Origin: Eledone cirrhosa
Taxonomy: Eukaryota
DNA length: 64,000 bases
Assembly: GCA_964016885.1 (NCBI GenBank)
Contig: OZ024758.1
Span: forward strand, 682,001 to 746,000
Direction: 5' to 3'
Shown here: in pieces, positions 6,113 through 64,000 of the stretch
Position numbering within the stretch: position 1 is the first letter of the stretch
Layout: every line of letters begins with the position of its first letter
The notes under the pieces: generated by a model
Database searches by the model: none
What the model was told of the DNA's origin: nothing
Seen by the model: the letters and a program-made list of their open reading frames with translations, nothing else
Made by a program: the position numbers and the translations under genes

Positions 6113-6524
6113 TGTAACAAAGGAATATAACAGATAAAATCCATGGGGCTGAATATCAGAGATAAGAGGACGACTGACTGAGATAGAAGCTGCTAAATAG
6201 TCGGTCGTCTCTTGTTTCTGATTTTCAGCCCCATGGATTTTATCTGTTATGTTCCTTTGTCATATTTTGAATACCTGATGATGTCACCGGATTCTGAACT
6301 GGATTCTGAACCCGGTCATTGAAATGATCATATTTTATGATCATGATTTACACCAGAACATGCCTCTTGTTATTTTGTAATAATTAACTCCGTACTCGCA
6401 CCACCAACAACACAAACGAAGACGGGTGAGTTGCATTACGTTGAGTGTTCTCCATAATATTACATCGAGTTGACCATACTGAATGACCAGTTCTATCCAG
6501 TGGTGAACCAACAAACCTAAATAA
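6113..6524 (+). mobile_element. Non-coding PLE-type insert with inverted 5' arm and hammerhead-like motif
   Basis: Arms ~6117-6179 and ~6199-6260 are reverse complements with a few mismatches; (TA)n on both sides; hammerhead-like core downstream. Confidence 0.65.
6268..6337 (+). ncRNA. Minimal type I hammerhead ribozyme-like motif
   Basis: CTGATGA (6275), stem II ACCGG/CCGGT, GAAA (6321), palindromic stem III TGATCA, triplet ATC, stem I GAATA/TATTT with a 1.1-2.1 mismatch. Confidence 0.5.
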
Positions 6525-6880
6525 ATATATATATATATATATATATATACATATATATATATATATATATGTGTGTATATATATATATATATATATATAT
6601 ATATATACATATATATATATATATATACATATATATATATATATACATATATATATATATATATATACATATATATATATATATATACATATATATATAT
6701 ATATACATATATATATATATATATATACATATATATATATATATACATATATATATATATATATATATATATATATATATACATATATATATATACATAT
6801 ATATATACATATATATATATACATATATATATATATATATATATATATATATATATATATATATACATATATATATATAT
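6525..6880. repeat. (TA)n microsatellite with periodic CA interruptions; left target tract of PLE-1
   Basis: Direct reading of the sequence. Confidence 0.95.
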
Positions 6881-7077
6881 ATATTTGCGTAATATTGCCA
6901 GAATTAATAACAGAACACACTCACTGTTTGGTTGGTTTTCGCTTCTCGCTGTCTTTTATATATATATATCTGCGATCTAACTTACTCGGTCCTCAATGTT
7001 GCCATTGACTGACCGGCGGTCAAAAATAATACAGATACAATATAGACAAACACATATATATATAGTTTACATAAATC

Positions 7078-7105
7078 TTTCGTTGCACATCTGCAACATC
7101 GTCAG
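7078..7105 (-). ncRNA. Hammerhead-like core in PLE-1 3' region (mirror of 10776-10803)
   Basis: CTGACGA-T-GTTGCA-GATG-TGCAAC-GAAA; stems I and III poorly formed. Confidence 0.45.
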
Positions 7106-59846: not shown

Positions 59847-62147
59847 TTAATTAGGTTTATAATATTTAAATGTTTTTTTTAGTTTATGATTACACAATAT
59901 AATTAATTCCTGTCTTTTATTTAATAAGATATCCCTAGACTTCATTATTTCAAATAGTTCTTGGGAACATAATCTACATTCCTTTCTATTATTTTGATAA
60001 GGGGTGGCTCTTTTGAGCACACTCCAGGTCAAATCATATTTTATATTTTTATTTTTAAAACTATTGATTTTTTCTGCTAGAGATGTTGTATTAGCCAGTG
60101 CGGCATTTTTAAAGCTATGTTTGTGGGTATTATATCTTGTCTTAAAATTGTTAGAGGTAGCTCCTATATATGAGCAAATAGAATCTTTAGTTTTAACATT
60201 ACATTTATAGACTATGTTGTTAACAAGACAATTCCCTTTTAATGGGCAGTTTGTTTTGTTTCTACAGTTACATCCTTTCGTTAATTCTGTATTTGAGGAG
60301 ATATTATTGTTAATTTGATGTACTGGTGGTATACTTATAGTTTTCTTACATTTATATGCATTATATGCACTTATATTTTGTTTTATGTTATTTGTTGTAG
60401 AATATGAGAATTTAACTGTAGACCTATTTAAGATTTGATGGTATTTGTGGTTTGGCGGGAAGTTTTTCTCAAGGATATAAAAAAATTTTTTAGCAATATT
60501 ATCCTTAACTTGTAAATTAAAAGGAGCATTATACCAAGTAACTCGTCTATTACGGTTTCTATTTTGTTTATTATTTTTATTATTTTTATATGTTGTATCA
60601 TGATTTTTACTAGGAGGAATAATGTTAATGATCTCACCACAACTATTTTTAGTTATATTTGTAGATTTAGGTGTTTTATCTTTTTTATTAGGAGTTTTAT
60701 TATTAATATTTATTATAGTCTTATGATGAGTAGTTTTTTGAGGGTTACTATACTTTATATTAAAAGATTTAGTATTTTGGGGTATACTGTGGGTGGCATT
60801 TAGGTGTGTACTTTTCATTTGGTGTTTGTTGGTAATATTATGCTGTATGCTTTCAGTATTTTTAGTAGAAGGTATATACTCTAATCTATTTTTGTGGCCA
60901 CTTCTATCTAGAGCTTCATTATAAAAGGTCGCATTTTTATCAAATACATCTTGGTTAGAAGAAAGGTTAGAAATTCTAAGTGATATATTATATGCAAGGT
61001 TTTTAAGGATAGATTTAGGGTGATTAGATTGTGAGTGTATGTAATGTAAGTTTTGGTTAGGTTTATGGTAAGGTTGGTATATACCCGTAGCTAAATCTAA
61101 AGTTATATCTAGGAAATTTACTACTTTACTTGTTTTTTCAAAAGTAATATTAAGATTATAATAGTCTTTAAGGAAAGTTCTAATATGCTTTTTGTTTTTT
61201 TCGATTTCTGAAAGGCTAAGGTTGTTAGAAAGAAGAAGACAGTCATCACGATATAAACCACCTTTGAGGTGGGGAAAAGAGGCATTTATGTTGAAAAGGA
61301 GAAAGAGGCCCACAAGATCAGTAATTTGGGCAGAATCGCTTGAACCCATAGTAATATCAAAAAGATTACTATAAGTGTTTCTGGTCCAGTATTCATTCTG
61401 AAATTCAATAAGTGTTTGTCTAGCATGTGTAATAATGTTAATGTCATCCGAAGTTAAACTAGATCTATTTTTAGCAAATATTAATGCTTTGTTCAGGAGT
61501 ATGGGTGATATAGAAGAATAATAATTATCTATATCAAACTGTAGGAAAGAAGCAGAAGATTTACACCTAATATTTTTAAACCAATTAATTACCTGGGAGG
61601 TGTTTTCCCAGAGTGGTAAAATAACGTATTTTCTTATTTGTGGGATGACTCTATCTAAAATTTTTTTGCTAATTATTCCAATATCTGATTTGGAGGGACA
61701 TATAAGTCTAATAGAAGGATTAGAGTTAAAGTTAGATTTGTGATCTTTCAGGTTGAAGTGTGGACTTCTCAATGCCAAAGGTTCAGTTCTATCTTCAATA
61801 TTTAGTTTTTTTACTATGTTGTGTGTTTTGTTGTTGATGTTGGTGAGTGACGCATTATTAGATTTTTTATAATTTTTTCTGAGTTCTTTATATATGAACT
61901 CATTATAATGTTCAATATCCATATGATACAAGTTACCAGTTTTGTCCGAGTGGACATGGATTTTTTTAGACTTTTTTAGGTCCAATAGGGTAGAATCAAG
62001 GTCCTTTTGAAAGACGGATTTATACTTTTTAAATTTTAGGTGTTTAATTAAATTAAAAAGGTCTTTCTCGAAGTCTTCAAGTAAAAAGTTGTGTGGTGGA
62101 TTCTTGTAAGTGTTGAAATCATACATATATTTCCGATCTGAAAACAC
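59847..62147 (-). CDS. PLE reverse transcriptase / GIY-YIG endonuclease, N-terminally truncated (Nematis-like)
   Basis: SDKTGNLY, LKDHK..RLICPSKSDIG, FLQFDIDNYYSSI, FDITMGSSDSAQITDLVG, GLYRDD, VNFLD, SNHP; linker CNCRNKTNCPLKGNC; GIY-YIG IVYKC..YIGATSNNFKTRYNTH; C-terminal CRLC..E..LN..CNH. Confidence 0.92.
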   Translation of the reverse strand: MFSDRKYMYDFNTYKNPPHNFLLEDFEKDLFNLIKHLKFKKYKSVFQKDLDSTLLDLKKSKKIHVHSDKTGNLYHMDIEHYNEFIYKELRKNYKKSNNASLTNINNKTHNIVKKLNIEDRTEPLALRSPHFNLKDHKSNFNSNPSIRLICPSKSDIGIISKKILDRVIPQIRKYVILPLWENTSQVINWFKNIRCKSSASFLQFDIDNYYSSISPILLNKALIFAKNRSSLTSDDINIITHARQTLIEFQNEYWTRNTYSNLFDITMGSSDSAQITDLVGLFLLFNINASFPHLKGGLYRDDCLLLSNNLSLSEIEKNKKHIRTFLKDYYNLNITFEKTSKVVNFLDITLDLATGIYQPYHKPNQNLHYIHSQSNHPKSILKNLAYNISLRISNLSSNQDVFDKNATFYNEALDRSGHKNRLEYIPSTKNTESIQHNITNKHQMKSTHLNATHSIPQNTKSFNIKYSNPQKTTHHKTIININNKTPNKKDKTPKSTNITKNSCGEIINIIPPSKNHDTTYKNNKNNKQNRNRNRRVTWYNAPFNLQVKDNIAKKFFYILEKNFPPNHKYHQILNRSTVKFSYSTTNNIKQNISAYNAYKCKKTISIPPVHQINNNISSNTELTKGCNCRNKTNCPLKGNCLVNNIVYKCNVKTKDSICSYIGATSNNFKTRYNTHKHSFKNAALANTTSLAEKINSFKNKNIKYDLTWSVLKRATPYQNNRKECRLCSQELFEIMKSRDILLNKRQELIILCNHKLKKTFKYYKPN

Positions 62148-62971
62148 CTAAATCTACAAATATAACTAAAAATAGTTGTGGTGAGATCATTAACATTATT
62201 CCTCCTAGTAAAAATCATGATACAACATATAAAAATAATAAAAATAATAAACAAAATAGAAACCGTAATAGACGAGTTACTTGGTATAATGCTCCTTTTA
62301 ATTTACAAGTTAAGGATAATATTGCTAAAAAATTTTTTTATATCCTTGAGAAAAACTTCCCGCCAAACCACAAATACCATCAAATCTTAAATAGGTCTAC
62401 AGTTAAATTCTCATATTCTACAACAAATAACATAAAACAAAATATAAGTGCATATAATGCATATAAATGTAAGAAAACTATAAGTATACCACCAGTACAT
62501 CAAATTAACAATAATATCTCCTCAAATACAGAATTAACGAAAGGATGTAACTGTAGAAACAAAACAAACTGCCCATTAAAAGGGAATTGTCTTGTTAACA
62601 ACATAGTCTATAAATGTAATGTTAAAACTAAAGATTCTATTTGCTCATATATAGGAGCTACCTCTAACAATTTTAAGACAAGATATAATACCCACAAACA
62701 TAGCTTTAAAAATGCCGCACTGGCTAATACAACATCTCTAGCAGAAAAAATCAATAGTTTTAAAAATAAAAATATAAAATATGATTTGACCTGGAGTGTG
62801 CTCAAAAGAGCCACCCCTTATCAAAATAATAGAAAGGAATGTAGATTATGTTCCCAAGAACTATTTGAAATAATGAAGTCTAGGGATATCTTATTAAATA
62901 AAAGACAGGAATTAATTATATCGTGTAATCATAAACTAAAAAAAACATTTAAATATTATAAACCTAATTAA
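62141..62971 (+). pseudogene. Inverted duplicate of the 3' part of the PLE-2 ORF (linker plus GIY-YIG)
   Basis: Mirror of 59847-60677; one visible substitution (ELIILC vs ELIISC). Confidence 0.88.
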
Positions 62972-64000
62972 TAACATTATTCTAGAATTTATTTTAATTT
63001 AAATGTTAGTTAACCTATAAATTTAATTTAATTAATATTTTATTACAGATGAGAAAATTTTATGTAATCATTAATTTTGAAAAACCTTTAAATATTACTA
63101 ATATATATTCAGTAATTTAATTTATAGATTAATTTTAACTTATTTTAACCTTTTATTATAATTTTTTAATTTAGTTTAACCTTTTATTATAATTTTTTTT
63201 AATTATAATTCTTTTACAGATAAAATATAACAAAATAATATCATGTATCCTATGACGGAGAAAGAATTTTTAGTATTATTGACCTAATTAATATACATTT
63301 TGGAAATATATTTATTATTTGGTTTTAGCTTTAATCAACCTAAAACTTTAATTTTAACTTTAATTTGCTTAAAATTAGTATCATTGTACAGACAAATTGC
63401 AGAATGTCATGTAATCATAGAATGGGAGGTGTTTTTGGATATATACCTAGTTAATATATTCTGTGCAAATTTTTTGAAAAAGATATGTATATCTATATGT
63501 ATATATATATGTGTGTGTTGTATGTGTATCTGTATGTATATTTATGTGACTATATATGTATGTATGTGTATATATATGTATATATATATATGTATATGTG
63601 TATGTATATGTATATGTATATGTATGTGTATGTATATGTATATGTATGCGTATTAGTTTTGATTTTTATTTGCATATAATTATATTATGCTATTGATGAA
63701 ATACAATATCTGCTTTATGTATTGTATACCTAATTAACATATACTAATTAACATATACTATTGAAATAAATATATAATTTTTAACTTAGTTAACATATAA
63801 TTTATATGCTACTACCGATGTAATACTTTATTTTATTTTTATTTGGGTTTCTTTTCCCTATTCATCTCCTAATATTGATACCATAACGTTATTAACTTTA
63901 ATTTAGTTATAATGTAATTAATAATCTACTACTGTTTGACTTCATAATTCTGCCTCAAATATTATAAACCTAACTAATTTACACCTTGGAAATCAATATG

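Follow-up and report, generated by a model that had tools for sequence, protein, structure and literature searches.

Inverted inserts in the window

We analysed 64,000 nt of the 3.0-Gb genome of Eledone cirrhosa (OZ024758.1:682,001-746,000, hereafter the window), in which Penelope-like elements (PLEs) and far shorter miniature inserts (minis) lie as head-to-head inverted copies in (TA)n tracts. Comparison of the window with itself and direct reading located seven non-coding inverted inserts and two coding inverted pairs, PLE-1 and PLE-2, all adjoining (TA)n, as originally predicted. In each insert one arm runs on into a tail that the other lacks. This one-sided layout had been described for eight inserts and PLE-2 fits as a ninth case, although the tails are not unique, as had been thought, but family-conserved and of fixed length.

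PLE-1 consists of a longer, tail-less arm on the reverse strand (6881..9336), with a 5'-truncated open reading frame (ORF; 7377-9326, 649 aa), and a shorter, tailed arm on the forward strand (9337..11065; ORF 9335-10504, 389 aa; tail about 10998-11065). The arms show 0 mismatches between 6881-8544 and 9337-about 11000, and at their junction (9318..9356) they overlap by 6 bp, with a 19-bp tandem duplication. The tail of 65-68 bp is atypical, since the family norm is about 56 and the short end lies at -41 in 10/15 PLE-1-like copies. In PLE-2 the tailed arm is the longer (56222..62147, reverse strand) and includes a 134-bp tail (56222-56355), a 3.5-kb 3' region and a 5'-truncated ORF of putative Hydra type (59847-62147, reverse strand, 766 aa), with DKT and CxCX5C and without CCHH. 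Its tail-less arm (62141..64000, forward strand; ORF fragment 62117-62971) continues past the window end to window-equivalent 66464 in a neighbouring stretch (L086; further loci are likewise given by L numbers), where it stops in (TA)n at the family's -134 short end. The PLE-2 arms (56356-60677 and 62141-66464) are 99.8% identical over 4.3 kb.

Zero-loop palindromes are found on the forward strand at 31081..31302 (arms 31081-31232, 98.7%; apex CTAG; 71-bp tail), a stub of a 515-bp non-coding tandem unit; at 41938..42177 (the 41939 insert; arms 41936-42145, 99%; apex GTATAC; 35-bp tail), apparently a stub of a Neptune-like PLE, whose apex coincides with the start of a long copy, L097, at -139; and at 55755..56032 (arms 55755-about 55976; apex CCGG; 57-bp tail), a stub of a coding PLE. 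As predicted for one mini, a tail is shared with PLE-1: that of 55755 is homologous to it. The mini at 40311..40499 (the 40310 insert; reverse strand; arms 40388-40502, 96.6%; 78-bp tail at left) belongs to the most abundant family, a putative Hydra-type PLE with a full ORF in L100, and its arm ends at -137/-134 fall inside the cluster of 5' ends of that family. An older subfamily is represented by the mini at 18332..18643 (reverse strand; tail at left; arms 18411-18474/18582-18646, 92%), and the two inserts are 84-97% identical to one common reference. In tandem copies, the sequence of the 107-bp spacer of the 18332 insert comes after the tail end (the ORF start), which indicates a template jump. 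A solo tailed arm of the same family, without a full inverted partner, lies at 44151..44285 on the reverse strand and had been overlooked.

The insert at 34805..35526 (forward strand; arms 34805-34837/35395-35427, 100%) derives from a 486-bp non-coding tandem hammerhead unit. Its tail-less arm (34805-35396, minus strand) is the longer and carries a full hammerhead, and its tailed arm (35395-35526) is the shorter. A repeat resembling a short interspersed nuclear element (SINE) interrupts the tail-less arm at 35176-35362, and its nesting within the insert with a duplication of ~16 bp shows it to be the younger of the two. The insert at 6113..6524 (forward strand; arms 6117-6260), of a non-coding 2077-bp tandem unit family, is old, its arms being only 86% identical, and a degenerate hammerhead lies near 6271-6330. 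The tail of ~260 bp reported for it is present but atypical, with the short arm ending at -257 against the family norm of 139 bp (-139).

The seven minis thus make up six families: 18332 and 40310 form a single one, and 55755 is related to PLE-1. The inserts are not all perfect palindromes, since many have spacers or arm divergence of 2-4%.

Family ends and the elements behind them

Copies of each family were fetched with its insert (25-30 loci per family; 20 for PLE-2; pattern matches for 40310), these loci being best-scoring or first-listed matches rather than random samples. In every family the 3' ends are fixed at two positions, the tail end (T) and the short end (S), both adjoining (TA)n. 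The S-to-T distance, that is the tail, measures 35 bp in the 41939 family, 57 in 55755, 71 in 31081, 78 in 40310/18332, 107 in 34805, 134 in PLE-2 and 139 in 6113. At S as well as at T, 2-8 nt could base-pair with (TA)n. The apex, on the other hand, varies from copy to copy, with 38 distinct positions among 50 listed hairpins. Some S or T ends (in L003, L016, L030, L036 and L149) adjoin (GA)n/(CT)n rather than (TA)n, at places where the element itself ends in CTCT, which suggests that primer pairing shapes the choice of target.

Fixed, asymmetric outer ends, variable apex and length, and extension into reverse transcriptase (RT) ORFs or tandem units agree with the prediction that the minis are neither miniature inverted-repeat transposable elements (MITEs) nor microRNA (miRNA) genes. 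The fixed length, symmetric terminal inverted repeats and constant target-site duplication of MITEs were not found in these families, and the Rfam miRNA matches listed over the window were all below gathering score and driven by TA/TG repeats. An origin as MITEs, miRNA genes or assembly fold-back artefacts would account for the hairpin shape, for these sub-threshold matches over TA-rich hairpins and for the lack of a read across a window apex. However, it is refuted at the family level by the asymmetric ends, the variable internal length, the extension to RT ORFs, arm divergence of up to 14% and the presence of inverted joints and of both ends, T and S, in raw reads, and we regard it as scarcely credible. 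These raw reads, from another study, support the two-ended, inverted structure at family level. In two other individuals, loose (AT)n ends on the non-palindromic L100:2450-3050 numbered 2907/2596 reads at S and 7398/8050 at T, and opposite-strand joints connected L100 2645-2662 to 2703-2746. We disregarded a sharp stop of the reads at L100:2656, which probably reflects a restriction site of the library.

The YxDD and YIG motifs of endonuclease-containing (EN+) PLEs are present in the ORFs of PLE-1, PLE-2, L097 and L100, together with the layout of such elements, namely partial tandems forming pseudo-long terminal repeats, an inverted 5'-truncated copy and a one-sided tail. Pfam RVT_1 matched PLE-1 and L097 weakly, below cut-off, and Pfam gave no match for the ORFs of PLE-2 and L100; the L100 protein has 2216 homologues. 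The 649-aa ORF of PLE-1 encodes an RT with YVDD, a CX4CxxC linker and GIY-YIG with CCHH. The linker and CCHH are those of Neptune/Nematis, and since the N-terminus is missing either clade fits. An 876-aa ORF in L097 has DKG, GLKF, a CX5CxxC linker and CCHH, all four Neptune/Nematis features, by which the 41939 family would be Neptune-like. In this long, frameshifted copy (L097:1479-5008), the RT frame is preceded by a Thr/Asn/His-rich N-terminal region in another frame. L100 contains a 786-codon frame with DKT and CxCX5C and without CCHH. Both PLE-2 and L100 have DKT for DKG and CxCX5C and lack CCHH and GxKF, as in the Hydra clade (PMC8557442 section 11); the RWK motif reads RWR in L100 and is truncated away in PLE-2. 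On this published motif description, PLE-2 and the 40310 family appear to be Hydra-type.

ORFs of the 55755 family share 57-70% protein identity with PLE-1. The 3' regions of PLE-1 (10725-10735) and of the 55755 family (L194:1346-1355) have a AAGATGGCG/AAAATGGCG motif in common, near the 5'-end cluster of that family, which we take to be YY1-like. The prediction that tail clusters would extend to RT/GIY-YIG ORFs holds for 4/7 minis (41939, 40310, 18332, 55755), whereas the other 3/7 (6113, 31081, 34805) reach non-coding tandem hammerhead units.

The units of the 31081, 34805 and 6113 families measure 515, 486 and 2077 bp and contain no ORFs across the 25-30 loci of each family. A canonical type I hammerhead is found in each 515-bp (L032, L046) and 486-bp unit (L223, four units), which is the layout of a non-LTR (long terminal repeat) retrozyme, and in the 2077-bp unit stem II of the hammerhead begins in a non-canonical manner. 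Hammerheads had been predicted in several minis, of which 34805 has a complete and 6113 a degenerate one, but 18332 and 40310 retain only the 3' half and 31081 and 55755 have none. These assignments rest on our own pattern search, folding and reading; Rfam gave no hammerhead at gathering score in six family loci, nor any among the best 150 of 308 matches to the window. Pattern search or folding also predicts a hammerhead in PLE-2 and in the 40310 family, the latter with a U3/A8 core that we presume to be a hammerhead variant, and the 41939 and 55755 families and PLE-1 have only minimal motifs recognised by eye. The U3/A8 variant was not found in the accessible text of PMC4209133. PLE-like ORFs near L205, L206 and L223 were considered as a coding partner for the 34805 family and rejected as separate neighbours, two being set off by TA tracts. 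It is likely that the non-coding, retrozyme-like hammerhead repeats ride on PLEs, borrowing their enzyme.

Several other repeats were observed in the window. The SINE-like repeat of ~190 bp found at 35176-35362 is dispersed, with copies at 13691-13901, 22765-22869, 26743-26961 and 29642-29767. More families end straight in (TA)n (41715-41930, 30032-30241, 22297-22379, 651-728 and 11287-11533) and are probably further PLE-type stubs; a palindromic copy of the 11287 family occurs in L069. Old, short fragments of the 55755 family lie at 47093-47143 and 32719-32758. Inverted repeats at 48846-48902 (91% over 57 bp) and 42552-42787 (72% over 246 bp) have no TA flanks and are of other origin.

Junctions and the route of insertion

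Among 102 head-to-head junctions we counted 84 that pair a T with an S end (from six families), 1 T+T, and 17 with an odd or unclassed outer end. The 40310 family was also surveyed in 1.06 Mb not fetched by its own searches. Here 61 inserts included 18 T+S pairs (17 without one segmental duplicate), TA adjoined 46/47 T ends and 19/20 S ends, and no T+T or S+S was present among the cleanly classed pairs. The longer arm in the 84 junctions was the tail-less one in 25 and the tailed one in 34, with 25 about equal; in the window, PLE-1 and 34805 carry the tail on the shorter arm. In the 17 short 40310-family hairpins S reached further upstream in 10, T in 4, and 3 were equal. The two arms of L068, L073 and L095 have no common sequence, so that neither can be a copy of the other, and S-ended copies without an inverted partner also exist (for example L202, L206, L210, L218, L220, L223, L121 and L129).

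The best model for these inserts, which we consider somewhat better than an even proposition, is that two primings on one RNA are followed by end-joining. A cut in (TA)n would supply a primer on either side, and reverse transcription of a single RNA would begin at two fixed internal sites, from one nick at T and from the opposite nick at S; the two complementary DNAs (cDNAs) would stall or run off the RNA 5' end before being joined. In twin priming of LINE-1, a second nick likewise primes a second cDNA on the same RNA and the products join head to head with microhomology; there the second site of priming varies, and the products share no overlap. In contrast, each family here has a constant second site and arms that usually overlap to form palindromes. 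In vitro, the Anolis PLE PAc cuts and extends both strands, its RT starts at two internal sites that bound the tail, and uncleaved RNA serves as template (PMC11167929, accessible text). We infer that T and S are opposite-nick priming sites, matching two such start sites. PAc differs from the families described here in being Poseidon-type with an ATT preference, and the accessible text of that paper does not relate these start sites to the paired arms of inverted insertions.

Alternatively, priming might take place once, at T, with fold-back (snap-back) of the nascent cDNA; the endonuclease would resolve the product at S, and the centre would lose sequence asymmetrically at a later time. This route accounts for microhomology, for arms of one template and for apexes that fall on naturally occurring short palindromes or, in the 6113 family, on its natural hairpin (with the tailed arm longer in 8/9), and the tail has been ascribed to EN-mediated resolution (PMC8557442, in the part accessible). 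Nevertheless, longer S arms, non-overlapping arms and solo S copies are not direct products of one T-primed, folded-back cDNA. A secondary deletion would be required in 25/84 junctions and 10/17 short hairpins, and there is no direct route to the arms of L068, L073 and L095, to solo S-ended copies or to zero-loop apexes at the start of solo copies. We consider this explanation unlikely.

The two arms come from the same template, as they agree at polymorphic sites in 167/186 observations against 104 expected. In the 40310 family the agreement is 62/65 against 28 expected; in addition, a subfamily marker, counted by eye, is the same in both arms of 49/49 readable listed hairpins, and L281 has three private variants common to both arms. 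An origin from two RNAs, from separate insertions into one TA tract or from inverted duplication by host repair would fit the 19 discordant observations of the 186 and the repeated re-invasion of TA tracts (55755 and PLE-2 share one, and many loci hold several families). However, arms match far beyond random family members and pairing is nearly always of T with S, so that such origins are largely refuted and appear very improbable. At the apex, 37/55 filler-free junctions overlap by >=2 nt against 9.1 expected, an excess that BLAST edges may inflate; overlaps are of 0-5 nt, and 20/75 junctions have short fillers instead.

The minis had been predicted to be short products of PLE integration, and this is supported, although many are not random truncations but stop at one fixed 5' position. 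In the 40310 family, 63/88 5' ends fall at -121 to -147, with 7 beyond, and this cluster adjoins a TATA-like motif (-168) and an initiator-like TCAGT/TTAGT (-139). Short copies make up 9/20 of the PLE-2 family, which is young, and in 7 of the 9 an arm starts at -339 to -344. In three short PLE-2 copies with different flanks, an identical zero-loop apex lies at the base where two solo copies also start, a geometry that a single strand cannot fold into. The 5' ends of the 6113 family are mostly at -330 to -368 in a sample selected for >=321 bp, and in the 41939 family, also selected for length, ends at -139 to -142 lie 4-7 nt past a putative cut site. Poly(A) runs on the cDNA side at the 5'-end position of three junctions (L115, L259, L264) fit end-of-template synthesis, though they are few. 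Considering copy ends and adjoining motifs together, the fixed stop is probably the RNA start. According to the two-priming model, minis would arise when priming takes place in the terminal repeat at the 5' side, a mere 140-340 nt from that start, and for this reason arms would often stop at the same base and form near-perfect hairpins. We did not rely on a cluster at -310 in the 55755 family, which may be an alignment edge at a CA repeat. The 40310-family cluster (L100:2640-2652) is situated within stem II of the predicted hammerhead. With its pyrimidines and YAG it looks like a splice acceptor too; copies keep the AG, which argues against splicing at this place.

A palindrome could also have been formed beforehand, by self-priming on antisense or hairpin RNA as for the Penelopes of Adineta, or transcribed hairpins could be copied again. 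Antisense self-priming has been proposed (PMC3846280, accessible text), some apexes recur (12 repeats among the 50 listed), and L204 and L281 are nested, complex copies. The 38 distinct apexes weigh on the other side, as the recurrent ones sit where 5' ends cluster anyway, and the match of the outer ends to two in vitro RT start sites and their pairing with (TA)n are left unexplained. These routes seem to us decidedly doubtful.

A number of observations weigh against two primings on one RNA, or against the reading of the 5' stop. Rare T+T pairs exist (L067, L145), and the 17/102 junctions with odd outer ends were left out of the 84. Agreement of the arms at template variants is predicted equally by fold-back copying, and asymmetric deletion of a palindrome centre could later lengthen either arm relative to the other. 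Most family samples, taken as the best-scoring 25-30, are biased towards young copies that match or exceed the query in length. No read bridging the apex of a window locus was found in the raw data, which are reduced-representation reads with short contigs and skipped repeats. The RNA start is deduced from copy ends and motifs, and an RT stall site may be an alternative; alignments may also simply end at the 5' cluster in diverged subfamilies. In the 515- and 486-bp families the 5' ends are broad and pass the ribozyme cut site without clustering there, which also argues against cleaved monomers as the main template.

Abundance, precedent and meaning

Exact 27-nt matches to 40310-family tails number 21,617 genome-wide, exact short ends followed by TA 20,287, and exact head-to-head hairpins with an apex of <=30 nt 12,980, the last being a lower bound for the family; reversed-pattern controls gave 0. 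On a grid of 40 evenly spaced 10-kb stretches (400 kb), 24/53 inverted-repeat rows (22 distinct loci) were asymmetric with TA flanks, whereas random placement would give 1.7. On inspection ~15-17 of the 22 were convincing, and the others end at different microsatellites or are SINE pairs. The abundance foreseen in the original prediction is thus upheld at an estimated ~110,000-165,000 TA-flanked hairpins genome-wide, but its figure of about one per 7 kb is local, and the grid gives one per 18-27 kb. With the same filter the window has 6 per 64 kb and the genome 22 per 400 kb, so that the window is about twice as dense as average; the filter caught 6/9 window cases, which makes the density estimate conservative. 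The grid loci (L227-L266) include >=10 further asymmetric TA-flanked hairpin families unrelated to those of the window, with tails of ~30-115 bp (for example L231:6685-7436 with L266:3070-3553, and L239:1297-1755 with L259:2932-3182).

Comparisons with published systems are drawn here from the accessible parts of the papers cited. For EN+ PLE insertions, the literature records (TA)n targets and hammerheads along with inverted copies at the 5' side and tails on one side (PMC8557442, PMC3846280, PMC4209133, PMC8969392). The families described here resemble them in having 5'-truncated copies and partial tandems, an inverted copy, likewise 5'-truncated, at the 5' end, a tail confined to one end, and (TA)n targets; hammerheads are predicted in their terminal repeats. 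They differ in tail length (35-139 bp against 30-40 bp) and in miniature two-arm hairpins, of which one family alone has at least 12,980. The layout had been thought not described at this scale; the inverted arm with a tail is in print (PMC8557442 Fig. 2 legend, PMC3846280), but counts of such mini hairpins were not found. Likewise, the accessible text of PMC8557442, PMC3846280 and PMC8969392 does not quantify how often T pairs with S, how symmetric the arms are in length or how 5' ends cluster. In a search to which subscription papers and bioRxiv supplements were outside, no paper was found that applies twin priming to PLEs or counts such hairpins.

The PLE-2 and 40310 ORFs share with the Hydra clade DKT, CxCX5C, the absence of CCHH, CxxC and CxH motifs, and (TA)n targets (PMC8557442 section 11), whereas the 3' region of PLE-2 is 3.5 kb and Hydra elements are usually <3 kb overall (PMC8557442). 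The supplement of that paper lists octopus Naiads and Hydra elements, and the families described here may already be catalogued there. The non-coding tandem units with type I hammerheads are like metazoan non-LTR retrozymes, for which mobilisation by PLEs has been proposed (PMC7229834; bioRxiv 10.64898/2026.07.22.740005). Unlike these, they measure 486, 515 and 2077 bp rather than 170-400 nt and have dispersed PLE-type insertion ends (T, S, inversion and TA target). The accessible text of both sources does not discuss inverted copies or tails, and proposes PLE mobilisation without insertion signatures. Overall, the inserts are a known kind of insertion, made by new members of known PLE clades and by retrozyme-like passengers.

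We tentatively put forward a joint reading, to which we give rather less than an even chance. A dimeric enzyme would perform programmed twin priming from both target ends at two fixed sites on one RNA, with the tail as the distance between the sites; priming in the 5' repeat and run-off would mass-produce the minis, and the same reaction would move retrozymes. Together these would have generated >100,000 inverted repeats, a large potential source of substrates for ADAR and Dicer.

In conclusion, the value of these inserts is mechanistic, as they provide countable, testable support for two-ended priming and for run-off at the RNA start. The origin of the inverted repeats and tails of PLEs has been called undefined (PMC8557442), and the enzyme that moves animal retrozymes has been argued from co-occurrence and phylogeny (PMC7229834; bioRxiv 10.64898/2026.07.22.740005), in the parts of these papers that were accessible. 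Both questions become countable in this genome, where a family has tens of thousands of junctions, with ends that are very young and look intact. Exact predictions follow for the S and T start sites and for RNA 5' ends at -139 in the 40310 family and -340 in the PLE-2 family. In genome annotation, hairpins of these families will be mistaken for MITEs or precursors of miRNAs. Should they be transcribed, they would be a potentially large source of double-stranded RNA in Eledone cirrhosa.

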